Assembly: GCA_046497275.1 (NCBI GenBank)
Contig: JAWOFX010000020.1
Location: 1-14,943, forward strand
DNA length: 14,943 nt
Direction of reading: 5' to 3'
Source of the DNA: Promethearchaeia archaeon
Lineage (GTDB): Archaea > Asgardarchaeota > Lokiarchaeia > Sigyniarchaeales > SOKP01
This document shows positions 3,037-14,943 of this stretch, in pieces. Within the stretch, counting starts at the first letter, position 1. Each line of letters opens with the position of its first letter. The notes below the pieces were generated by a model. That model was not told where the DNA came from. It did no database searches and saw only the letters and a program-made list of their open reading frames with translations. A program made the position numbers and the translations under genes.

Positions 3037-4722
3037 TTAAATAAATTCAACGGTTTTATTAACGTAATCCATATAATTCTGTATCTCTTCCTGTTTCTTA
3101 TTATTATCCCAAGAATATTCTTGGGCCATAATATTTGCAACTTTCTCTGCAGCCTCTAATTGTCTTTTGTGATCGATAAATAAACTCATTTCTGTTCTTC
3201 GACAAAAAACATCAATTATATGAGGAGTTATCTCATAACGGAGTGTATAGAGTATTTCTGCTTTTATAAAATCGTTTTGATCAATTATTTTCTCTTTTAA
3301 ATTGGGATTTTTTTTGATCATTTCAAGGATTTTGAGAGCACCGCGACCATATTGTATATAAAGATGATCTGCTATTTTATCATCAATATCAAGATTATAT
3401 TTATTCAATTTCTTTTCCCACTCATCCTTTTCAAGTCCTATCGCAAATTTTAGTTTTGAAAATCCTTCCTCGCGTCTAATATCTGGAAATATATTCTTAT
3501 TTTCTACTTCACTGAAGAGGTCTTCTGCCATCTTACGCCATGTTGTTAGTTTACCCCCAGCAATAGTTAACAATCCTTTTTCATTAAAAAAGATAATATG
3601 TTTTCTCGAAACATCGCTTTCGGATTTTCCCTTTTCTTTTACTAGAGGTCTGATCCCGGCATAAGTTTCTAAGAGATTATCTTCATAATCTAATTTTGCA
3701 TCAGGAAAATAATACTTGACTGATTTAATAAGATAATCAGCATCGTCTTTATTACAATAAGGATTTGTGAGATCATCATCATAATCTGTATCGGTAGTCC
3801 CAATAATTGTAAAATTCTCTCGAGGCAGAACAAAAAATGACCTTTGGTCTGTGATTGAGGTTATGATAGTTGCCATTTCATTTCCTACATCTTCACGTTT
3901 ATATGTTAGATGAACTCCCTTGGTAGGCCTTATTAACGGTTCTGGCACATCATCTGGATATTGATTTAATAATTCATCGCTCCAAATTCCAGTTGCATTG
4001 ACAACTAGAGTACCTTTTACTATAAATTCTTCTCCATTTTCTCTATCTATACATTTAACTCCAGAAATAGTTTCATTCTCCAAAATATAATCGATAACTT
4101 CACAATAATTAATAATATCAGCCCCCCTTATTACGGCTTCTTTTAAAGTCTCTATAGTTAAACGGGCATCATCCACATTGCAATCATAATAGACCGCTCC
4201 ACCTTTATTTCCTTCTTTTTTGATTTTTGGTTCTTTTTTTAATACTTCTTCTTTATCTAAAAGACTATGTTGTTTGTAATTTTTGAATTCCTCGCCTTTA
4301 TCGCTTAAGATATCATACATTTTTACTGCTGCCTTAATATCTCTCTTCTTGTATTTTCCATCTTCCCATTCAACAAACAAAAAGGGAATAGGTCTAATTA
4401 AATTAGGTATATGTGCTATCATCCAATTTCTCTCAGTTGTGGCCTCTTTAACGAGATCCATATCCCCTTGTCCTAAATAACGTATTCCACCATGAGCTAA
4501 TTTAGAGCTTCGTGAAGATGTTCCAGCGGCAAAATCCTGCATTTCTAATAAAGCCACCTTTAAACCTCTCATTGTCGCCTCACGTGCAACCCCTGCTCCA
4601 GTTATACCTCCGCCTATGATAATAACATCATATTTATTTTCTTTTAATCGATTTTTAATAGTCCCTCTGTTCTGTAAATTCCAGTTATTATCATCAAATA
4701 ATTTGTTTTCTAAGTCCTCCAT
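3037..4722 (-). CDS. glpD: FAD-dependent glycerol-3-phosphate dehydrogenase/oxidase (GlpD/GlpA family)
   Basis: DVIIIGGGITGAGVAREA FAD motif, DFAAGTSSRSSKLAHGGIRYL, VDDARL, VVNATGIWSD, RPTKGVHL, IIGTTD, YAGIRPL, SRKH, GGKLTTWRKMAE. Confidence 0.9.
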   Translation of the reverse strand: MEDLENKLFDDNNWNLQNRGTIKNRLKENKYDVIIIGGGITGAGVAREATMRGLKVALLEMQDFAAGTSSRSSKLAHGGIRYLGQGDMDLVKEATTERNWMIAHIPNLIRPIPFLFVEWEDGKYKKRDIKAAVKMYDILSDKGEEFKNYKQHSLLDKEEVLKKEPKIKKEGNKGGAVYYDCNVDDARLTIETLKEAVIRGADIINYCEVIDYILENETISGVKCIDRENGEEFIVKGTLVVNATGIWSDELLNQYPDDVPEPLIRPTKGVHLTYKREDVGNEMATIITSITDQRSFFVLPRENFTIIGTTDTDYDDDLTNPYCNKDDADYLIKSVKYYFPDAKLDYEDNLLETYAGIRPLVKEKGKSESDVSRKHIIFFNEKGLLTIAGGKLTTWRKMAEDLFSEVENKNIFPDIRREEGFSKLKFAIGLEKDEWEKKLNKYNLDIDDKIADHLYIQYGRGALKILEMIKKNPNLKEKIIDQNDFIKAEILYTLRYEITPHIIDVFCRRTEMSLFIDHKRQLEAAEKVANIMAQEYSWDNNKKQEEIQNYMDYVNKTVEFI

Positions 4723-4746
4723 AATTATCAGATTTTTAAATGTTTT

Positions 4747-4754
4747 TTATATAA
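4747..4754 (-). promoter_or_regulatory. Candidate archaeal TATA box for glpD
   Basis: TTATATAA lies 25 nt upstream of the glpD ATG (4722), a spacing compatible with a leaderless or short-leader archaeal transcript. The AT-rich background limits certainty. Confidence 0.4.
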
Positions 4755-4940
4755 TTAAGATTATTCTAATAAAATTTTAATACTTATGTTATATGATTAA
4801 GGGAAATTGGAATTAACATGACTAATATAAAACATACAATTTTCAATAAGGATGTCCAATTGAAACATGATTGTTTAAAAAAACCATCCTCATTTCAAAT
4901 TCGATTGATTAATTAGCTGAAAAATTTGATTTTAAAAAAA

Positions 4941-5918
4941 TTAGATACATGCTAATAATTTATCGAAAATCAGTGGGAGAGATAAAATATCATAATAATT
5001 ATGATCTATACATTCTTTTATGAGTCCGATATATTTTTTCTGATCCTTTAAATATTTGTTATAACACACACCCACTAAATTACTTGGCAATTCATTCTTT
5101 CTTTTCCAGTTTAATAATTCCTGCTCTATCGTCGTTAGAGTATAATCTGAAAATTGTCCTTTATATTTTCTTCGGCAGTTATGGTAAAGATCTATATGTC
5201 CGAATCTAGTGTTAAAGTCTTTATATGGAATAGCATTGTCAGAAATCATTGGATTTTCGTCAAAATAGTATAAAAATCTGTTAGCCAAATATGGAATATC
5301 AAAACTTTTTCCATTGTATGTTATAAAACACTTAAATCGCGGGAGAATTTTGGTTCTTAGCTGTTCACATAAAGCAATTTCCTCTTCTAAGCCTCTCGCA
5401 AATAATTGAACAATATGATAGGTTTTTCCTATATAATAGCCTAAGCCTACGATAATTATGGGGCTGTCATACAACCCTAATGTTTCAATATCAAAAAAAA
5501 GAAATTCGTTTTGATTAAAACAAAAAGATGTGTCTAAATCATAAACATATCTATTGTTTATAAGGGTTTGAAAATCTTTATTTTTTACTTGTTTAATTAC
5601 TTTAATGGCTCCCTGTCTAAATCTTAAATTAGATCTTAGGTCATATATCGTTTTAATCCCTCTTTTAATAAATTGCCTTTCAATTGCTTCTCCAATATTA
5701 TATACTGTTTTTAAGTTACATAACAAATTTATTTTAGAGGATTTTAAATTGAGATTTTGAGGGATATTTTCATCGCATTGCCATGAAATTTCCAAAAATT
5801 CCCCCAGACCATTCTCTATAACTTCTTGATTTTCAAATAAATCATCAAGTCTTTTTCCTTTATGTTTATCTATATGAGTGGTAATATCAAAACTTTCGAA
5901 GTTATAAGAGAACTCCAT
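4941..5918 (-). CDS. RNase H-like (YprB/RNase_H_2-type) DEDDh exonuclease with an N-terminal helix-hairpin-helix segment
   Basis: FFDIETLGL (ExoI), TYNGKSFDIPYL (ExoII), HIDLYH, HNYYDILSL (ExoIII). VYNIGEAIERQFIKRGIKTIYDL is HhH-like. Confidence 0.8.
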   Translation of the reverse strand: MEFSYNFESFDITTHIDKHKGKRLDDLFENQEVIENGLGEFLEISWQCDENIPQNLNLKSSKINLLCNLKTVYNIGEAIERQFIKRGIKTIYDLRSNLRFRQGAIKVIKQVKNKDFQTLINNRYVYDLDTSFCFNQNEFLFFDIETLGLYDSPIIIVGLGYYIGKTYHIVQLFARGLEEEIALCEQLRTKILPRFKCFITYNGKSFDIPYLANRFLYYFDENPMISDNAIPYKDFNTRFGHIDLYHNCRRKYKGQFSDYTLTTIEQELLNWKRKNELPSNLVGVCYNKYLKDQKKYIGLIKECIDHNYYDILSLPLIFDKLLACI

Positions 5919-6018
5919 TATATATCTTGTTGTAAACTATGCTATTTAAAATATCATTCTGTGATAATTTATAATGAAACAGTTTTTTAATTTTCCAGAA
6001 AGTAAAAATAAAAAGAGA

Positions 6019-7365
6019 TTATTCGAAAAACAAATCGATCTTAGGAACTTCATCTTTTAGGTGCCGTTTCGAAGGCTTAGTCTTGAAGAAGCGGCGGGAC
6101 TCGCTATCCTCCAGAACGTAATTGCTACCTCCACCGTGAATCATGCAATATGGGTCCAAAAGCCCGATCTGGTTAGAATATTGCCGAATAAATCCCCTCC
6201 CACCCATAGTTCGAAAACAATGTTCAGAGCTTTCAAACGCTAATTCTGTTGTTTGAATTTTAAGCCCCATTGTATTAGCTGCCATTAATTTAGAACTCAC
6301 TAATTCGGGTTTTCTATCTAAATTGCGAGCATATTGAAAAAGCGCAGAAATTAATAAATTTAATTGTCGTATATTTTCGGAAATTGGAAATCGTAAAACT
6401 TGGTATTGATGTAATCTTCTTCCAAATTGTTCTCTATGAGAAGCCCAAGTATGGGAATATAATATCTTTTTCATAGCGTCTCCTAAGGCTTCCGCACTTA
6501 TTACTAATCTTTCTTCTGTAAGTTGATGGAACATTATATCTATTCCATTCCCTTCTAAAAGATTTTCTATAGGAATTCTTGTCCTATCAAATATCAACCT
6601 ACTTACAAAAGCATCTCTCATTCCATAGGTATAAACTCTTGTTGCTCGAAAATCGTTCAATGAAAGATTCTTAGTTGGCACTACAACAGCCCCTAATTGT
6701 CCATTATTTAAACGACCATAGACAATAATATAATCTGCGATTAATCCGTTAGTAATAAATACCTTCTTACCTTTTATTACCACTGAATCATCTTCTTCCA
6801 TAAGACGAAGTTCCATGTTAAAGATATCACTTCCTGCATTGAATTCCGTCATTGCAGACGCTCCTATAGCTCCATCTCTATTTACAGGATATAAAAAATT
6901 GTCTCTTTGATAATTATTTGCTTTATAATTCACAGGATTACAATATAACGTCCCTCCTGCAAGTCTACCCATTTCTATGCTCCAATTTCCTGCAATATAT
7001 CGCTCAGAATAGTCTGACCATCTTCCCCCACACAATGCATATGCTATAAGACAATTCCTCATAATAGGACCTAGCTCATATTCCGGGTCTTCAGTGCCTA
7101 CAGTGCTGTAATATCCTTTCTTAGAGAGTTTTTTCATTATTCCAACAACGAGTTCTTTCTTTTTTTCTTCGATAGGTTCTTGTATATGATAATTTAATTC
7201 CTCAAGTTTTCTCAATTCCGCATCAAGATCATTTTCCAAAAATTCATAAAAATCTTCTAAAAATCTTTTTTCATTTTCTTCGAGTAAAGGATTATTCAAG
7301 ATATCAAGCTCAGGAACATATTTATTGATCCTTATAGGTTGGAATTCTGCTAATCTAGTATCCAT
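6019..7365 (-). CDS. Acyl-CoA dehydrogenase family protein
   Basis: AMTEFNAGSD, IKGKKVFITNG, LTEERL, REQFGRRLHQYQ, MGGRGF motifs. Confidence 0.88.
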   Translation of the reverse strand: MDTRLAEFQPIRINKYVPELDILNNPLLEENEKRFLEDFYEFLENDLDAELRKLEELNYHIQEPIEEKKKELVVGIMKKLSKKGYYSTVGTEDPEYELGPIMRNCLIAYALCGGRWSDYSERYIAGNWSIEMGRLAGGTLYCNPVNYKANNYQRDNFLYPVNRDGAIGASAMTEFNAGSDIFNMELRLMEEDDSVVIKGKKVFITNGLIADYIIVYGRLNNGQLGAVVVPTKNLSLNDFRATRVYTYGMRDAFVSRLIFDRTRIPIENLLEGNGIDIMFHQLTEERLVISAEALGDAMKKILYSHTWASHREQFGRRLHQYQVLRFPISENIRQLNLLISALFQYARNLDRKPELVSSKLMAANTMGLKIQTTELAFESSEHCFRTMGGRGFIRQYSNQIGLLDPYCMIHGGGSNYVLEDSESRRFFKTKPSKRHLKDEVPKIDLFFE

Positions 7366-7781
7366 TTTTGTTCTCTTAATTTTTTGTTATTATTAAATAA
7401 TTTTAATAAAATTAATATATAATAGATCTAAAAATCTCCAAAATAAAGGTTTTTTGCTCATATCCTAAAATTAATCTTGAAAAATATGAAAGAATAAGTC
7501 CGAAATAAGAAAAAAATAGGGAAAAAGAAAGTTAAGAAATTATTAACTTAGAAAAAATCAACTTTGCAATAGTCAAGAAAGCAATTAATAATACGAATTT
7601 TCAGATCATTACCTTTCAATTTTTTAATAATAACCTAATGGTTGCATTCTTGATAATCTTCATTATTAAATAAAAAAAATAGTCTGTACAAACAGAAAAT
7701 TATTGAGACAATGCAGTGCCATCGGAATCGAGACTCTTCGTGTTTTGTAGTAAATGAGAAAATAAAGAATTCTTAGTATTG

Positions 7782-7788
7782 TTATAAA
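7782..7788 (+). promoter_or_regulatory. Candidate TATA box for the tnpB-like gene
   Basis: TTATAAA ends 36 nt before the ATG at 7825. Weak evidence in an AT-rich context. Confidence 0.25.
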
Positions 7789-7824
7789 CAGAATCGCCCT
7801 CTGATCTGTCTCATAAACTAAATT

Positions 7825-10461
7825 ATGGAGAAGTGCGAAACTAACAGTGATCGCAATGCCCGATCAAACATCTCAAAGCAAGGTGATTTTATTTCTGATG
7901 TGGAATTTTATGTAAATGATCAAGCTTACAAGGACAATTTCTTACTTAAAAACAATATGAAGCAGACTTTTAAAACCGATATTGTGTTAGGGTTGGATGC
8001 GATAAATAAAATCTTGATGAGAAATTATGGGGTCCCTTTTTATCCTTTATTTGAGAAAATTGTACAAGAAAAAATTAATGATTCCCGATTATTATTGCCA
8101 AATTTAAATGAAGAGAAGAAAAAGAATTCATCTGATGATATTTCGAAGAATTCCAATGTAGGAATCCCTAAAGATCATATCAACCCAAATTCTATTGATA
8201 ATAAGCAGCCTACTTCGAGATCTTTTGTAATAAAACAGAAGCGCATTGAGGAAATGGAATCGATGGTAGGAGAAAAGGGTCGTTATTCCACTGAATCGAT
8301 ACGGATTTCTCGGGCTAAATTAGATTTAAAAGAGTTGGATCGTCTTGCCAACCGCTCTCGTGCACTTGCGAATGATACTTTGTATTTATTGCGGCAATAT
8401 TACTTTTATAATAATACGAAAGATCCTGTGAAGAAAAACCTATATCGTAAAATCATCGAGAGCAAATTTTACAAAATCATAAAAGAATCCGAATATCCAA
8501 CTAAGAAAAAAGAGCGAGCGATAGAAATTTTGGATAATTTATTTGTCAAATTAAAGGCTTTAAAGAGTATTGTTCCAACGATAATGAAATTTATGGAATC
8601 TTACAAAGATATTGGATATTCCATATGTGCTCAGCAAATCGTTAAATCAGTCTGTGAGGCATTTATTAGTCATTTAGAATTAATAAGGAAATATTATAAG
8701 GATCTAAAAAAGTGGAATCACACCGCCGAAAATCGACGGAGACAAAAACCATTACGACCTGGTCTACCCCGCTACATCGGCAAAAAAATAAAGGGAGAGC
8801 GAAAAGGGAAATGGAAATTGATCTATACAAGACAAACACTTCAACATAGGAAGAATTTGGAAAGCCTTAAAAACGCCATCGATAACCAGCGATATACGTG
8901 TTATATGTATGTGCCACCCTCACACAATCATTTAATCCCCCCTATACGAATCAGAGCTAATATATTACGACAATTATTTGGTAATGGCGGGTTTGTGGAA
9001 ATCATACCAAAAGGAAGAAATTACTCATTTAACATCCAATATATCAAGACTCAAAGGCAACGAGTCAGAGAATATGGTCTTGATCTCAACAGATACGAGC
9101 AAAACCCTAATAGAGCGATTTCTATCGACTTCGGAGTAAACAATTTTCTCACAGTCTTTAACAACTTTGGTGCGAGATTTCCTATATTTAAAGGTTCAGC
9201 GTTAAAGCGATGGAACTATAAAATAAATCATATAATTCCCAGACTGCAGCGCAGGGTTGATGTGCTTACCGATGTGTTAGAACGATATGAAGAGAAGAAA
9301 AAAACGGGAAGATTACTTTCATTGGAATCAATTATCAATTCTCGAATTCACACCTATCACGACGAATTTGAGATATTGAAACAGATGATTCTTTATATTT
9401 TTAGAAGAATTTTTGAACTTTCCAAAATAGATAAAGCGGAATTAGACGAAAAAGATTTTTTTCTTAAATGTTTTCGTTCCAAATTTTTTTATGGAACGAT
9501 AAAAAAGACGAATTGGAACGACTTCAAAAAAATTGCTGAAAACGATGGTAAAAGAGTCTATAAAGGCATTTTCAATAAGGTCAGAAAGGTTATCTTGATG
9601 GATCTTACGCCACGTGAAAAAAATTCTCTCTTAAATAAGTATTTTCACTATTTACAGAACAAAAGAGATTATAAGGTAAGAATTCTCAGAAAGATTTTTG
9701 GGTATCCAATTCAAGATTTACGAGATTACTTAGAATCACTTGGGTTAAGGATTGATGAGTTATGGGCCAAATATAACCGAGTGAAGAGGGATACCATTAA
9801 CAAGATTGCCAAAAGGTTAATATATTATTGCCTATACTATAAAGTAGCAATGATTACTTTCGGCTATAACAAGGGGTGGCAAAAGCAGCAAAATAATACT
9901 ATTAAACTGAGAAAACTGACCAGAGTTTTATTCGTTTCACTGCCATTTAGCCAGATGTTTGAACGAATTCAACAAGAAGCAGTTTATTTTGGGATAAAAG
10001 TGGATTATATGCCCGAATGGTATACAAGCAAATGTTCATATATCGACGAAGAATCAATTGGGAGGAAAGAAGAAGGGAAATATGCTGGATTACGTAGGTT
10101 TAACAAGAACGGAGTTAAGCATAATGGGTTATTCCGCTCCAAAAACGGATATATCATTCACGGAGATATCAATGGTGCGGCAAATATCGGCAGAAAAAAA
10201 CATCCAAAATTATTTTCATTTCGTGCTATTGCCTACAATTTAGGCTTGATTTCCGATCCTCACCGACCTCTAACCAATCAAATAAAACAAAGAGTCTCTA
10301 AATTTATTACCGCCCCCCCGATCAGTTTTTCCCCCTCAAACGGACTCCCCACCAAAGAATTAAAATTTAACGATAGAGTAGGAATAAGTGAGATTAGAGC
10401 TCAAAGGTATCAAATGGGTCCAAAAGAATTTTTGGCAATGACTCAAACTACTTATGTGTAG
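7825..10461 (+). CDS. tnpB: Oversized TnpB-family RNA-guided endonuclease (IS607-type rearranged RuvC), 878 aa
   Basis: REC/WED motifs ELDRLANRSRALANDTLYLLRQ, AQQIVKSVCEAF, RPGLPRY, VEIIPKGRNY. RuvC-I ISIDFGVNN (D435), ITFGYNKGWQ (G680 at the canonical Glu site), PEWYTSKCS (E731), GLFRSKNGYIIHGDINGAANIGRK (D781). Confidence 0.9.
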   Translation: MEKCETNSDRNARSNISKQGDFISDVEFYVNDQAYKDNFLLKNNMKQTFKTDIVLGLDAINKILMRNYGVPFYPLFEKIVQEKINDSRLLLPNLNEEKKKNSSDDISKNSNVGIPKDHINPNSIDNKQPTSRSFVIKQKRIEEMESMVGEKGRYSTESIRISRAKLDLKELDRLANRSRALANDTLYLLRQYYFYNNTKDPVKKNLYRKIIESKFYKIIKESEYPTKKKERAIEILDNLFVKLKALKSIVPTIMKFMESYKDIGYSICAQQIVKSVCEAFISHLELIRKYYKDLKKWNHTAENRRRQKPLRPGLPRYIGKKIKGERKGKWKLIYTRQTLQHRKNLESLKNAIDNQRYTCYMYVPPSHNHLIPPIRIRANILRQLFGNGGFVEIIPKGRNYSFNIQYIKTQRQRVREYGLDLNRYEQNPNRAISIDFGVNNFLTVFNNFGARFPIFKGSALKRWNYKINHIIPRLQRRVDVLTDVLERYEEKKKTGRLLSLESIINSRIHTYHDEFEILKQMILYIFRRIFELSKIDKAELDEKDFFLKCFRSKFFYGTIKKTNWNDFKKIAENDGKRVYKGIFNKVRKVILMDLTPREKNSLLNKYFHYLQNKRDYKVRILRKIFGYPIQDLRDYLESLGLRIDELWAKYNRVKRDTINKIAKRLIYYCLYYKVAMITFGYNKGWQKQQNNTIKLRKLTRVLFVSLPFSQMFERIQQEAVYFGIKVDYMPEWYTSKCSYIDEESIGRKEEGKYAGLRRFNKNGVKHNGLFRSKNGYIIHGDINGAANIGRKKHPKLFSFRAIAYNLGLISDPHRPLTNQIKQRVSKFITAPPISFSPSNGLPTKELKFNDRVGISEIRAQRYQMGPKEFLAMTQTTYV

Positions 10462-10480
10462 TAGTAATAAATAATACCAA

Positions 10481-10649
10481 TTCACGAAAGTGTTGCGGTC
10501 TACAGAGATGTGCGCTCTTAAAAATGCATGAAATCTCCAAAGTTATTAAGCCTTTCCGTGAAATAAATACAGAAAAAGGAATAAATGTTTGTTATTCTGA
10601 CACGAATGTAAAATAAGTCTGTATACTGGTAAAATTTTAATTTTCAAAC
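10481..10649 (+). ncRNA. Candidate omega/reRNA (scaffold ~10481-10629 plus putative guide ~10630-10649); the 5' end may begin inside the CDS
   Basis: Stems found by eye: 10481-10490/10552-10562 (one bulge), 10505-10514/10525-10537, 10567-10573/10618-10624 (perfect 7 bp) and 10579-10584/10592-10597. Located directly 3' of tnpB, where TnpB guide RNAs are encoded. Confidence 0.55.
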
Positions 10650-10792
10650 AAAAATGAATTTTTGAACTAAATTTCCTTATTGCAAACTTAAACAGAATTT
10701 CATTTAACATTTAGTTTAACCAATTTATTGGATCTTTTTTAGAAAGTGTTATTTTTAATTATTGGATTTAAACAAAAAACTTTATTAAATTC

Positions 10793-10813
10793 TTAAATTA
10801 AAGTTAATTTAAT
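10793..10813. repeat. Inverted repeat TTAAATTAA-aag-TTAATTTAA upstream of the thiolase-like gene (possible operator)
   Basis: Perfect 9-bp arms with a 3-nt spacer, between a TATA-like TTTATTAA (10781-10788) and the ATG at 10837. The arms are AT-only. Confidence 0.3.
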
Positions 10814-10836
10814 GATTAAAAGGTAATTGAAGAAAA

Positions 10837-12258
10837 ATGATAAAATTTAGCGAGAAACAATTAAAAATTCCAAAGTTATTACGACCCGTGTACTTAGTTA
10901 CAGCTGGAATGTCTAAATTTGACAGAGCATTCCCAGAAACACGAACAGAAGAGTTATGTATAGATGCATTAACTGCAGCAGCAGATTTTGTTAATATGAC
11001 ACCAACAGAATTAAAACAATATATTCATACTGCTTACTATGGTCATTTCGCTGACCATTTCGGAGACCAACTTCTTGGAGAGGCAGTAATCCACGACAGA
11101 TTAGGATTAGATCCCTTGGGAACAATTGGTGTCAAAACTGGTGGTGCTACTGGAGGTTCTACAATGTGGGAAGCTATCAAAGCTGTCGCATCAGGGTATA
11201 GCGATTGTGCCTTGGCTTTAGGATGGGAACGTATGGATGAAGTCCCAACAGATGAGGGAAATCATTTAATCGCGTGTGCTGCTGATAAAGATTGGGAAAC
11301 TCCTTTAGGGCATATCTATACTGGCTATTATGCTGTAATGGCCCAAAGGTATTGGAAAATTTTTGGGAAAGAAGAACCATCTTTTCGAGATACTATGGCT
11401 GAGATTGCTGTGAAAAATAGAGGATATGCAAGAATGAATCCTCATGCCCATGGACCAATGGATATTAATATCGAAGATGTTAAAAATTCACCCGTCATCG
11501 CACATCCTTTAAGAGCATTAGATTGCTGCTTAATGAGTGTTGGAGCTGCTTGTGGAATTGTCTGTGATGAAAAAACTGCATATGAAATCACTGATCATCC
11601 CCTTAGAATCTATATTGGAGCTGGAAGTCACACGTTGAGAGTAGGAGATCGAAGGGATATGAAGGTACCGCTATTACCAAATGAAAAACCAGATCAATAT
11701 GATGATTTAGGGAAAGAATTCCCAGGTGGTGATCGTTATCCTGGATTTACAAGCTTCTTAGCTGCTCGAGTGGCAGCTTATTATGCTTATAATATGGCTG
11801 GAATCAATGATCCCCTAGAAGATTTAGATGTAATTGAGACGCATGACGCGTTTACGATCAGTGATATTCAAACATACGAAGATGTCGGGATTAAACCATA
11901 TGGTCATGGTCGAGAATATATCGAATCTGGTGAAGCATATCTTATAAATCCTAAGACTAATAAACCAGGTAAATTACCATCAAACCCCTCTGGAGGATTA
12001 ATTGGGTGCATGCATGCTGTTGGAGCTACGGGTTTAATGCAGATAGCAGAAATAGGCTACCATATTTGGAATAGATGGGATGAGATACACGAACCCCAAG
12101 AAAAATGGGATGCTTTTGGAAGAGAGAAACCAAAAGATTGGAGGAGTTTACAAGTCGAAAGAGCTAAAAGAGGTCTGGCAATAAGTCATGCTGGAGTAGG
12201 ATCCCATGTTACGTGTACCATTTTAATGGATCCAAATAATTTGTTAAAGGAGGATTAA
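10837..12258 (+). CDS. Thiolase-fold protein (SCP2/type-2-like) lacking the canonical nucleophilic Cys
   Basis: VYLVTAGMSKF, IAVKNRGYARMNPHA, PLRALDCCLMSVGAA, ETHDAFT, NPSGGLIGCMHAVGATG. VKTGGATGG occupies the position of the usual VENACASG. Confidence 0.85.
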   Translation: MIKFSEKQLKIPKLLRPVYLVTAGMSKFDRAFPETRTEELCIDALTAAADFVNMTPTELKQYIHTAYYGHFADHFGDQLLGEAVIHDRLGLDPLGTIGVKTGGATGGSTMWEAIKAVASGYSDCALALGWERMDEVPTDEGNHLIACAADKDWETPLGHIYTGYYAVMAQRYWKIFGKEEPSFRDTMAEIAVKNRGYARMNPHAHGPMDINIEDVKNSPVIAHPLRALDCCLMSVGAACGIVCDEKTAYEITDHPLRIYIGAGSHTLRVGDRRDMKVPLLPNEKPDQYDDLGKEFPGGDRYPGFTSFLAARVAAYYAYNMAGINDPLEDLDVIETHDAFTISDIQTYEDVGIKPYGHGREYIESGEAYLINPKTNKPGKLPSNPSGGLIGCMHAVGATGLMQIAEIGYHIWNRWDEIHEPQEKWDAFGREKPKDWRSLQVERAKRGLAISHAGVGSHVTCTILMDPNNLLKED

Positions 12259-12262
12259 AAAA

Positions 12263-12865
12263 ATGCCAAAAACAGAAGAAGAAAAAGGATTTGTTGAGAT
12301 TGTTGACGGAAATTATAAAATTAAAGGAAAATTTCATATAGTCGAAGAAAACCAACCGATTTTTGATAAAGATACTGGGAAATTAGCTGGAGTGACTAAC
12401 CCACGTGATATGACTTATATCCACTCTTATGGGGGTGAAGCACCATTTTTTGAAGGGATAACACAAGGAAAATTGCTTGCTACGAGATGTGACAATGAAA
12501 ACTGCCTTTCAAAAGGGAAAATTTTTGAACCATTTAGAATTCATTGTCCAGATTGTCTTAGAAAAAATACCATCGTAGATATCACCGATAAAGCAAAAAA
12601 TAAAGCAAAAATACATACTTTTATCATCACTCATCGTGCTGGTGCATTTAACACCTTACCAAAACCAATTAAATTCATTAATGTAGAATTTGATGAAGAA
12701 GTCGCTACCATATTAATGAGCATTTTAGCGGTCGGAGAACCAAGTATTGGAAAAAAAGTTGTGCCCATCTTTCAGACCAAAGACCCAACTTATACTATTA
12801 TGGATTTAAGATTTGTTCCTGAAGGAACTCCAGTAACTGAATTACCAGAAGGGTTTACTTTTTAG
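12263..12865 (+). CDS. DUF35-type Zn-ribbon/OB-fold protein (thiolase partner)
   Basis: FFEGITQGKLLATRCDNENC...CPDC zinc ribbon followed by an OB-fold-like segment (IHTFII...FINVEFD). Starts 4 nt after the thiolase stop, with SD AAGGAGG. Confidence 0.85.
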   Translation: MPKTEEEKGFVEIVDGNYKIKGKFHIVEENQPIFDKDTGKLAGVTNPRDMTYIHSYGGEAPFFEGITQGKLLATRCDNENCLSKGKIFEPFRIHCPDCLRKNTIVDITDKAKNKAKIHTFIITHRAGAFNTLPKPIKFINVEFDEEVATILMSILAVGEPSIGKKVVPIFQTKDPTYTIMDLRFVPEGTPVTELPEGFTF

Positions 12866-12890
12866 TAATAAAAATCTCAAAAGAAATTAA

Positions 12891-12907
12891 TTTTTTTTTA
12901 TTTTTTT
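12891..12907 (+). terminator. Oligo-T archaeal-type terminator after the thiolase/DUF35 operon
   Basis: T9-A-T7 tract 25 nt after the DUF35 stop, in a convergent intergenic region. Confidence 0.5.
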
Positions 12908-13011
12908 CAAAAAGGAATGTCTGTGATTTTGTTCTTTTTACTTTGATTAAGAGAACATTATCTTATTTTTTCTTAGAGTTTCAAAATGATGAGGAAATAT
13001 AATTTTAATAG

Positions 13012-13025
13012 AAAAAAAGAAAAAA
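13012..13025 (-). terminator. Oligo-T terminator candidate after the kce-like gene
   Basis: A7-G-A6 on the plus strand (T6-C-T7 on minus), about 25 nt past the stop. Confidence 0.4.
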
Positions 13026-13049
13026 TAAATTAATTATTTATAGATCTCT

Positions 13050-13940
13050 CTATAAGGTTACTGATGCATTTTTGATATTGAATTCTTTCCTTGCTTCTTC
13101 TCCTTGAACTACTCTTCTCCCCGATTTTTCTGCCATCTCTTTCGCCCAAGCAACTTGTTCCCAACTTCCTTTCGCTAAAACCCCATTGGGCATTCTGATA
13201 TTATCTTCTAACCCAACTCTTACATGTCCACCCCATGCAATTGCGCATAAGGCGGCTTGGAATTGCTGGTTAGAAACACCACAGACACTCCAAGTTGCAT
13301 CTTCTGGCATATCAGCTAGCATATGAGCGAAATTCATTGGTGTAAAGGGAATTCCGCCACAGACACCAAATACGCATTGAAAATGGAGAGGTTGGTCGAA
13401 CATTCCCTCTTGTTTGTTTAAAAGAAGCATATTATATAATCCTCCCATATCGTAAATTTCCATTTCCGGTTTAGTGCCAGCTTTTTGAAAATAACTTGCA
13501 AATCTCTGAATTGTTTTAAATGTATTGGTAAACACATTATCGGCAGCCATTACAACTTCTCCTGTTTTCCAATTTGCGACGGAAAAATTCATCGAATTTG
13601 TATTTAATGACCCTAAGGGAGGTTTAAAAGTTCGTACAGGTTTAATTCTATCCCTATCAGTAGCATTTATGCTAATCGCAGTGCTTAAATTAATCATAAT
13701 ATCTGGGGCTTTACTCTTAATATTTTCTAATGTTGCCCTGATTATATCTAAGTCTGGGGTTGGAAGCCCTTGTTCATCTCGTGCGTGAATATGGACTATT
13801 GCCGCTCCAGCATCATAACATTTTTTAGCTTCATCGCCAAACTCTTCTGGACTATATGGAACTGCTTCATTCTGATTCTTTCGGGTAACTGCTCCAGCTA
13901 ATGCTGCTGATATTACTAAATTATCTGTTCTATGGACCAT
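13050..13940 (-). CDS. kce: Beta-keto acid cleavage enzyme (BKACE/DUF849, 3-keto-5-aminohexanoate cleavage enzyme family)
   Basis: ISAALAGA, VPYSPEE, GAAIVHIHARD (Zn-binding HxH), KPEMEIYD, GGHVRVGLEDN. The symbol denotes the family; substrate unknown. Confidence 0.88.
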   Translation of the reverse strand: MVHRTDNLVISAALAGAVTRKNQNEAVPYSPEEFGDEAKKCYDAGAAIVHIHARDEQGLPTPDLDIIRATLENIKSKAPDIMINLSTAISINATDRDRIKPVRTFKPPLGSLNTNSMNFSVANWKTGEVVMAADNVFTNTFKTIQRFASYFQKAGTKPEMEIYDMGGLYNMLLLNKQEGMFDQPLHFQCVFGVCGGIPFTPMNFAHMLADMPEDATWSVCGVSNQQFQAALCAIAWGGHVRVGLEDNIRMPNGVLAKGSWEQVAWAKEMAEKSGRRVVQGEEARKEFNIKNASVTL

Positions 13941-14103
13941 TTCATCTCACTTTTTTAAATTTTTGGATTCACAATAAATTGAATAATTTATATTTGTTGT
14001 GAAATTGCTAAATAAAATATTAATTTTCAAATTATTTAAATGTTAAATCACTTTGAGCCTAAAATTTCAATTTTTTTATTCAATGACGTAAGACCTTATG
14101 GAT

Positions 14104-14140
14104 TTTGATATGATTTTTCAAATTTGAAAAAACTATCAAA
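14104..14140. repeat. Imperfect 37-bp palindrome with a perfect 18-bp core TTTTTCAAATTTGAAAAA (14114-14131)
   Basis: Read directly from the sequence. Outer arms TTTGATA (14104-14110) and TATCAAA (14134-14140). Intergenic between the ligase and kce. Confidence 0.6.
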
Positions 14141-14242
14141 TTATGCTGAAAAACAAGAAAAATTAATTATAGATTGTAAGTCAATCAAATAAATTATAGA
14201 AAAAAAATAGTGTAAAAAAATAATTAAATTAGAAATTAAATT

Positions 14243-14943
14243 TTATTCTCGCGCTTCTTTTCTAAGGACTTTTTTATCGATTTTACCTACAGCAGTTAAA
14301 GGAATTTCTTTCGTGATCTCAATCAGTTTAGGAACTTCATAAGGAGCACATTTTTCCTTAGCATAGGAGATTATCTCTTCCTTCAATTCCTCTGGATCTT
14401 TATCGATATATTGAGGACTAGGTTGGACATAGGCTTTCACAATTTCAGAACCTGGTCTATCTGGGTTAGGAATACCCACAAGTGCCAACATATCAATTGC
14501 CGGGTGTTTAGAAAGTACGTCTTCAACCTTGCTCGAGAATACTTTATATCCTCCTACAATGATCATATCTTTAGTCCTATCCACAATTTTTATATATCCA
14601 TCTCCGTCCATAATTCCCACATCACCAGTATGCATATATCCATCCTTATCGATTGCTTTTTCTGTTTCTTCTGGTTTATTATAGTAACCTTTCATAACTA
14701 ATGGTCCCTTAATTAATATCTCACCTGGTTCACCAAGCGGAACGGGTTCTGAAGTTTCTGGATCAGCAATTTTACAATCTACATTTAAAAATGGCATACC
14801 AACCGTTCCTAACTTTTTATTACCTAATGATGGATTCATAGTCGATACGGGGGAGGTTTCTGTCATTCCGTATAGTTCCAACAACTTTCCTTTTCCAATA
14901 ATGCTTTCTAATTCCACTTGTGATTCTTTTGGAAAGGGGGACG
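14243..14943 (-). CDS. Long-chain fatty-acid/acyl-CoA ligase (ANL adenylate-forming family), C-terminal part; 5' end beyond the window
   Basis: ELYGMTETSP, GEILIKGPLVMKGYYN, HTGDVG, IVDRTKDMIIVGG, TAVGKIDKK. The frame is open to the window edge, so the GTG at 14917 is not the real start. Confidence 0.9.
   Translation of the reverse strand, partial: SPFPKESQVELESIIGKGKLLELYGMTETSPVSTMNPSLGNKKLGTVGMPFLNVDCKIADPETSEPVPLGEPGEILIKGPLVMKGYYNKPEETEKAIDKDGYMHTGDVGIMDGDGYIKIVDRTKDMIIVGGYKVFSSKVEDVLSKHPAIDMLALVGIPNPDRPGSEIVKAYVQPSPQYIDKDPEELKEEIISYAKEKCAPYEVPKLIEITKEIPLTAVGKIDKKVLRKEARE

Follow-up and report, generated by a model that had tools for sequence, protein, structure and literature searches.

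A large TnpB2-type gene in a Lokiarchaeal genome, judged to be a 5'-truncated member of a multicopy mobile-element family

The window analysed here is a stretch of 14,943 nucleotides from a Lokiarchaeal genome (contig JAWOFX010000020.1 of assembly GCA_046497275.1; 3.85 Mb in 188 contigs, 98.9% complete). It carries an open reading frame (ORF) of 878 codons plus stop, running from ATG 7825 to stop 10461 (7825–10461) on the forward strand, like all parts of the gene described below. How does a TnpB-like protein of this length come to stand alone, and does the gene still encode a nuclease? A sequence-only reading had called it a Cas12-sized, stand-alone TnpB-family nuclease, perhaps domesticated, and a candidate for an undescribed system. 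We found that the ORF is a real gene and encodes a TnpB homologue. We consider it probable that the window copy is a 5'-truncated, genus-restricted gene of the TnpB2 type, which still encodes a working RNA-guided nuclease core. The sequence-only reading was right about the ORF, the TnpB homology, the Asgard host and the enlarged lineage, and needs revision on the length, the active-site type, the stand-alone state and domestication.

Fold, active site and size of the nuclease core

Two Pfam families match the protein above their cut-offs: OrfB_IS605 at residues 423–497 (36.6 bits, cut-off 30.5) and Cas12f1-like_TNB (PF07282) at residues 708–788 (28.4 bits, cut-off 26.3). A single-sequence search against PDB chains gave no match. 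A profile of 120 relatives, comprising the window protein and 119 others whose identity ranges from 77% down to about 21%, matches Cas12f and TnpB structures with E-values of 3e-18 to 2e-11.

The AlphaFold2 model, built with the same 120-sequence alignment, has a mean predicted local distance difference test score (pLDDT) of 80.9. Residues 134–838 are confident, with the core at about 90, and residues 1–133 are poor. Structure searches with the model matched TnpB, Cas12 and Fanzor structures only. By VIA-align, the best superposition is with AsCas12f (Z 14.9, 380 residues aligned); Fanzor2 scores Z 13.3, ISFba1 TnpB 12.7 and ISDra2 TnpB 12.1. Taken over all matches, the ISDra2 and ISFba1 TnpBs span Z 10.5–12.7, and TnpB and Cas12f together Z 10.5–14.9, covering model residues 151–795. 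Cas12b, Cas12i2 and CasPhi align over about 420–445 residues at Z 11–12, and the best Foldseek E-values belong to Cas12o1, Cas12X and Cas12-2. The model thus displays a predicted WED-REC-RuvC-TNB arrangement, as in the TnpB fold. The conserved large TnpB core comprises residues 133–878 (about 745 amino acids; 8221–10458), as indicated by blastn within the genome, the Pfam and NCBIfam matches, the model and the ratio of nonsynonymous to synonymous substitution rates (dN/dS). Nucleotide homology common to all paralogues begins at 8230.

Seven columns are invariant in the 120 sequences, namely D435, G437, G680, E731, T734, R757 and D781. The RuvC-I aspartate, Asp435, lies in the motif 'SIDFGVNNF' (codon GAC, 9127–9129), and RuvC-III provides Asp781 (10165–10167). 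The invariant Gly680 ('ITFGYNKGW', 9862–9864) is located at the canonical position of the RuvC-II glutamate; in the Cas12f alignment it falls on the strand that bears this glutamate in canonical TnpB and Cas12f. An alternative glutamate, Glu731 ('PEWYTSKC', 10015–10017), follows 51 residues past Gly680. Because Gly680 holds the canonical position, the active site is, by its residue pattern, of the rearranged TnpB2/RIIr type, in which an inert residue, Gly or Pro, stands in for the canonical glutamate, and on the same pattern the triad is intact in a known alternative form.

The TNB-like region (9946–10188), located by the PF07282 match and the invariant columns, has no C4 zinc finger. Only C737 is left of the CxxC...CxxC pattern, while H766 is invariant and H779 nearly invariant. 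The pattern is also absent from the whole family and from its relatives of about 400 amino acids. RuvC-I reads D435-F436-G437, whereas Fanzors and 'pro-Fanzors' are recognised by D-P-G (PMC10711439).

The sequence-only reading had placed D435, E731 and D781 correctly at nucleotides 9127, 10015 and 10165. It also called the RuvC triad intact, which holds for the conservation of the three residues, since none of the 120 relatives shows a decayed triad, but not for the role of E731, which is not the canonical RuvC-II glutamate. Nor is this active site undescribed, having been published as TnpB2 (PMC10530073) and as RIIr-5 (PMC10691335). Jiang et al. (2023; PMC10530073) described TnpB2 by a glycine in place of the RuvC-II glutamate and an alternative glutamate about 45 residues downstream. 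In the same work, TvTnpB of Thermoplasma volcanium, a TnpB2, was a nuclease dependent on a transposon-associated motif (TAM) and guided by a right-end RNA, and the alternative glutamate was essential in a Fanzor. Altae-Tran et al. (2023; PMC10691335) gave the name RIIr-5 to the largest clade of this kind, in which glycine replaces the glutamate, and also noted the loss of zinc fingers in some branches.

Most of the additional length comes from an insertion of about 165 amino acids (residues 477–643; 9253–9753). This insertion is lineage-specific, being absent from 61 relatives of 380–470 amino acids and partly present in other large relatives. Its place is equivalent to that of REC2, past the helix that follows RuvC-I and ahead of the one that precedes RuvC-II. 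It is predicted to be all-helical, with a pLDDT of about 90 in the full model and 93.5 when folded alone. In some large Cas12 enzymes (Cas12b, Cas12e, Cas12i and Cas12j), RuvC is interrupted by a helical domain. At the corresponding position, the paired helices of RuvC reach into REC2 (PMC10711439). A search of 48,161 PDB representatives with the insertion alone returned nothing more specific than helical hairpins and coiled coils of a generic kind (Z ≤9.3), which speaks neither for nor against a link to the REC2 of Cas12. The REC region has smaller additions relative to the same 61 proteins. A C-terminal tail (residues 801–878; 10225–10458) is mostly absent from ordinary TnpBs, and its pLDDT falls below 50 at residues 839–862.

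When a tree of the core was computed with the insertion left out, the family grouped with 12 other proteins of 645–1,806 amino acids in one clade, with a Shimodaira–Hasegawa-like approximate likelihood ratio (SH-aLRT) support of 98. This clade is separate from the proteins of about 400 amino acids, and the window family sits on a long branch within it. Since the large proteins group together on the core tree, the enlargement appears to characterise a broader clade that is poorly sampled. The clade and the helical insertion together bear out the idea of an enlarged TnpB lineage.

Truncation, giant relatives and selection

Sequence comparison shows the window gene as a 5'-truncated copy of a fusion gene, in which an N-terminal module and a retropepsin-like domain precede TnpB. 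Homology to every relative begins at nucleotide 7866, and therefore ATG 7825 and codons 1–14 are flank DNA. The left flank that holds them (7670–7865) is unrelated to the TnpB family. It was traced by its match on contig C111 of the same genome, being 78.5% identical to a stretch about 0.5–0.7 kb upstream of a gene for a protein of 1,751 amino acids (C111 42723–42524 against window 7670–7868). Right of 7866, the similarity is to the middle part of that gene (C111 39142–38936 against window 7867–8073). The two C111 matches are 3.4 kb apart, as would be expected had about 3.4 kb been deleted, and the left junction resembles a deletion scar.

Between the junction and the core lies what alignment with the relative P0178 and matches to RVP/Asp_protease identify as a remnant of the retropepsin-like domain with a low-complexity linker (residues 15–132; 7866–8220). 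Residues 15–136 are 85% identical to residues 954–1075 of P0178, a protein of 1,819 amino acids whose C-terminal 745 residues are 79% identical to the window TnpB core. The remnant corresponds to the C-terminal half of the domain and keeps 'IVLGLDAINK'. As the copy begins after the D-S/T-G motif, the remnant can have no catalytic function. In the model, pLDDT is below 50 at residues 1–57 and 83–133 and averages 53–57 between them. GTG 7900 corresponds to the start called for close homologues, and the copies of subfamily B, described below, start near the core. The length of 878 residues in the sequence-only reading is hence an artefact of truncation; the relevant unit is the core of about 745 amino acids, about twice the usual TnpB and in this sense still Cas12-like in size, or the full-length relative.

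We also examined whether the window copy shares its left boundary with the copy on contig C25. A tblastn comparison ruled this out: the C25 copy extends further by about 16 codons, a stretch that contains a stop, so that the two truncations differ.

In the full-length relatives, a module of about 950 amino acids is joined via the retropepsin-like domain to TnpB, as in P0178 and in P0177 (locus L023), whose continuous frame of at least 1,562 amino acids runs off its contig. All three parts stand in one continuous frame in P0178, in P0177 and in the distant P0035, which are independent of one another, and in P0032 the protease domain is fused to TnpB. The retropepsin-like domain alone scores 22.4 bits against Pfam RVP in P0176, the paralogue encoded on C111, and P0035 and P0177 give weaker matches to the same aspartyl-protease families (RVP/Asp_protease). 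D-S/T-G is kept in all five proteins with a whole domain. A search of the ESM Atlas with the N-terminal module returned no usable match, and the literature searched contains no description of TnpB fused to a retropepsin-like domain and a module of about 950 amino acids.

P0176 itself (1,751 amino acids; C111:36752-42007 on the reverse strand, locus L011:753-6008) consists of an N-terminal module of about 900 amino acids without a Pfam match, a retropepsin-like domain with D-S-G near residue 924, and weak helix-turn-helix (HTH) matches; an HNH-like motif ('ILHHIDFEKYNLDPNNLVYLFRDNHGF') is located near its C-terminus. P0179, its orthologue, shares 67% identity with it. In both proteins the N-terminal half is that of the TnpB giants, and the C-terminal half differs. 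P0178 is close to P0176 in its N-terminal half, and TnpB replaces the C-terminal half, which suggests that the nuclease half of the giant proteins is swappable. A hidden TnpB in the C-terminal half of P0176 was considered and rejected (hhalign probability 0.2%).

P0035 (locus L050, gene 6001-11421 on a Logan SRR7716471 contig) has 1,806 amino acids in the order N-terminal module, protease, TnpB. It adjoins a PCNA-like gene and an MmeI/Eco57I-type methyltransferase-restriction gene, and these neighbours may mean a virus or plasmid context. In a further metagenome relative, the frames of the N-terminal module and of TnpB overlap by 16 nt in different frames (L020:13924-13939). The overlap may stem from a mutation that shifted the frame, from an error in sequencing or from programmed frameshifting.

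Based on these giants, we tentatively speculate that the natural form of the protein is a polyprotein of about 1,800 amino acids, with a module of about 900 amino acids, a retropepsin-like protease and TnpB. The protease would free the nuclease, in the manner of retroelement polyproteins, the module would take over the mobility role of the missing TnpA, and the last half could be either TnpB or the HNH-like part. We hold this to be possible, with the balance tilting against it. If it is true, the family represents a new kind of Asgard mobile element, and the window gene is its deletion derivative.

Does a gene that has lost its 5' part still matter? Among six intact paralogues, the synonymous divergence (dS) is 0.49–0.89 and dN/dS is 0.21–0.27. 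By region, dN/dS is 0.13–0.15 in RuvC and 0.31 in the insertion. In a separate comparison, it is 0.26 for the core between the window and P0178, and the N-terminal module of the giants has 0.37; the rows of the C25 copy were left out there, as they are an artefact of its stop. High dS together with low dN/dS indicates that the protein was kept by selection in several old lineages.

The window copy might nevertheless be an inert relic, an open frame that the deletion deprived of promoter, genuine N-terminus and N-terminal module alike. It would then have ceased to be expressed or active, and its signal of selection would predate the truncation. Such a relic would account for the flank origin of codons 1–14, the scar-like junction and the protease half without D-S/T-G, and it would sit well with the many decayed copies in the genome and its relatives and with the failure to find a transposase in the genome. 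However, a stop-free frame of 2.6 kb at 31–34% GC is unlikely by chance at a dS of about 0.4 from the nearest relative. The core dN/dS of 0.26 against P0178 and the retention of all seven superfamily-invariant columns also speak against it. The N-terminal module is likewise missing from most of the intact paralogues, those of subfamily B, which are equally constrained, so that the core appears independent of the module. We therefore regard an inert relic as unlikely, though it deserves to be kept in mind beside the reading of a truncated copy with a functional core.

Copies, right end and proposed action

From the sequence comparisons, the gene is a member of a multicopy mobile-element family of one Lokiarchaeal genus. 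Its own genome holds 17 matches to the protein. Eight of them are open over the full length, at 69–74% identity, and the remainder are fragmentary, in several cases with stop codons. By blastn within the genome, nucleotide similarity among the copies spans window positions 8230–10529. The flanks of the copies are unrelated, and no neighbouring gene is conserved across them. At two orthologous sites the presence of the element differs. The copy on contig C92 sits between two genes that are adjacent, without a copy, in the same-genus genome G002, and the site of the P0178 element (locus L051) is empty in the window's own genome at contig C130, with the flank 91% identical. Among 41 related genomes, the family is confined to the same genus, mostly as decayed pieces, and other genera have ordinary relatives of about 400 amino acids. 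'Stand-alone' is hence true of the window only: the genome has at least eight intact paralogues, and the full-length relatives are fusions of about 1,800 amino acids. As for what the homologues share, large size is conserved, in the clade of 645–1,806 amino acids, but the neighbourhood is not.

These copies also bear on the suggestion that the gene was domesticated, that is, fixed at its locus as an RNA-guided regulator or defence nuclease of the host. Exapted TnpBs are documented (PMC10691335), the paralogues are old and under purifying selection, and neither the window nor the genome yielded a transposase, all of which a domesticated gene would explain. Yet at least eight intact and several decayed copies with unrelated flanks, a presence that varies at orthologous sites, and the lack of any conserved neighbour gene are hard to reconcile with a fixed locus. 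The locus is also non-syntenic with the same-genus genome G006, in which the neighbours are adjacent in another order without the element, and the catalytic residues are intact, unlike those of most exapted TnpBs. Domestication, as the sequence-only reading had proposed it, is in our view quite improbable. A type V CRISPR effector (Cas12) with its array elsewhere is more improbable still: the Cas12-like size, the best Foldseek hits and the REC2-equivalent position of the insertion point that way, but the window has no array or cas genes, all copies share one transposon-like right end with unique flank directly after it, and the nearest sequence relatives are TnpBs.

The right end is the best-defined boundary of the element. 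The window copy has a conserved non-coding segment (10462–10529) ending '...CTCTTAAAAATGCAT', past which similarity is lost sharply; we presume it to be the 3' part of the scaffold of an omega RNA or right-end RNA (reRNA). In 10 copies of the same genome, and in copies from metagenomes, the boundary is equally sharp, reading '...CTCTT(A/T)AAAATGCAT' and then unrelated sequence. It lies 68 nt past the stop codon in the window copy and about 70–80 nt past it in copies with a small indel. The mean pairwise identity of the tail is 83.5%, compared with 75% in the adjacent coding sequence, and is far above that of synonymous sites. In the coding region, dS is lowest in the C-terminal tail (0.54, against 0.65–0.86 in other regions). 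By analogy with other elements, the conserved tail and the low dS fit an overlapping constraint from an RNA or from a transposon end.

The presumed guide segment (10530–10549) is unique in the genome; it is placed by position, in analogy with TnpB systems. For the presumed 20-nt guides, the genome offers no further perfect match, save at an orphan right end on contig C115. This contig carries two right ends 2.5 kb apart, C115:3726 and C115:6273 (reverse strand), without a complete tnpB; the last ~150 codons are left in one and ~65 in the other. Past one of these right ends, 23 nt of flank are perfectly duplicated in tandem, so that the presumed guide recurs 23 nt downstream.

Extrapolating from characterised TnpBs, we propose that a transcript through the 3' end of the gene would yield the omega RNA or reRNA. 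Its scaffold would be formed by the last codons and the 68-nt tail, ending at 10529, and the guide by the next ~16–20 nt of flank. The ribonucleoprotein would then cut DNA that bears a TAM and matches the guide, namely element-free alleles, and this cutting would favour retention or homing of the element. Guidance by omega RNA, the position of the guide, nuclease activity and expression of the window copy are all presumed in this scheme.

Several results weigh against the reading of a truncated TnpB2-type gene with a working RNA-guided core. The NCBIfam model guided_TnpB scores 76.3 bits, under its cut-off of 100, and the zinc finger of most TnpBs is absent here. The native 5' region of the window copy was removed by deletion. 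The divergence of the paralogues is old (dS 0.5–0.9) and gives no sign of recent transposition. Searches of the 98.9%-complete genome for Y1 TnpA (PF01797) and serine recombinase (PF00239) found neither, while positive controls matched; this leaves the spread of the copies unexplained. As to the RNA, folding of 10290–10529 gave z = +0.18, no better than shuffled sequences on either strand. RNAalifold on 15 copies gave 21 pairs, 0 of them with a compensatory change, and the 3' end has no match in Rfam. Only two left junctions are informative, with '...AAATTTAT' ('TTTAT') before the junction at C130 and '...TTAATAT' before that at C92, too few for a TAM motif.

The left boundaries vary among the copies. 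In subfamily A they are formed by truncated protease remnants, and in subfamily B by a divergent small ORF upstream of tnpB. We notice that this ORF is a Cys-rich frame of about 98 codons, found at C71:40652-41039, C92:7397-7768, C133:417-798, C116:10510-10896 and C18:10155-10541; the C18 and C116 contigs end inside the repeat. Its substitutions are biased to third codon positions, a pattern by which it is probably coding. A start codon is not obvious, and Pfam gave no match to it. The spacer of about 95 nt between the Cys-rich frame and tnpB is almost invariant and AT-rich, with TATA-like boxes. The window retains only a 36-nt remnant (7513–7548) of the subfamily-B upstream region.

In the window, the flanking genes are metabolic by Pfam, encoding an acyl-CoA dehydrogenase, a thiolase, an OB-fold protein and a BKACE protein. 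No tnpA, cas gene, CRISPR-like or tandem array, tRNA or Rfam family was found within it, and the profile and array searches agree in this with the sequence-only reading. The gene order at 3445–7368 and 10782–14893 is unlike that of genome G006 (G006:C3, locus L041), where the thiolase, the OB-fold gene and the acyl-CoA dehydrogenase are adjacent on one strand without the element. Because the neighbouring gene order differs there, the window element appears to lie at a rearrangement breakpoint, and as the flanking genes are rearranged in G006, that genome offers no clean empty site for the window copy. An archaeal and possibly Asgard host had been suggested, which is in line with our findings: the named genomes with the family are only Promethearchaeota/Lokiarchaeota metagenome-assembled genomes. 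One paralogous copy (locus L012, C71:36000-44000) is flanked by two genes for Ras/Arf-family small GTPases, as expected in an Asgard archaeon.

Significance and comparison with known systems

Cas12 enzymes descend from TnpB, which is also a source of compact genome editors, and Asgard archaea are the closest prokaryotic relatives of eukaryotes. In the family described here, Cas12-like growth took place within a line of transposons that never gained a CRISPR array. The effect of such insertions on the handling of guide or target can therefore be studied here in a natural setting, independent of CRISPR. With no known partner transposase and with protease fusions among its relatives, the family also raises the question of how elements with TnpB alone spread, and whether the processing of a polyprotein plays a part. 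The type of nuclease is known; what we did not find in the literature searched is the doubled size, the zinc-finger loss, the lack of a known transposase and the fusion to a protease and module.

The closest counterparts are TnpB2 and RIIr-5. The family shares with them the glycine at the RuvC-II glutamate, a conserved alternative glutamate about 45–50 residues further on, before 'TS.C', and a defined right end. The proteins of about 400 amino acids that match the family profile show the same TnpB2-like glycine and alternative-glutamate pattern where inspected. Unlike TnpB2, however, the family has a core of about 745 rather than about 400 amino acids, with the insertion of about 165 residues, a long C-terminal tail and no C4 zinc finger. 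It is restricted to one Lokiarchaeal genus, and its relatives have a retropepsin-like domain and a module of about 950 amino acids as fusion partners.

With ISDra2 TnpB, ISFba1 TnpB and Cas12f, the family shares the WED-REC-RuvC-TNB core fold, as predicted by the model. These proteins differ in having the canonical RuvC-II glutamate and a zinc finger, and they are about half the size; Cas12f, in addition, uses a CRISPR array. The comparison with Fanzors is similarly mixed. They too have an alternative RuvC-II glutamate, and Fanzor1 has REC insertions relative to TnpB (PMC10711439), whereas the window family reads D-F-G instead of D-P-G, has no zinc finger, lives in an archaeal host, and shows no serine recombinase or eukaryotic transposon context.

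In size, and in the extra helical residues between RuvC-I and RuvC-II, the family resembles Cas12b, Cas12e, Cas12i and Cas12j. In contrast to these enzymes, it has no CRISPR array and no adaptation genes, and its insertion matches only generic hairpins. Finally, it differs from TldR and other exapted, nuclease-dead TnpBs, as its catalytic residues are invariant and its many copies lie in variable contexts.

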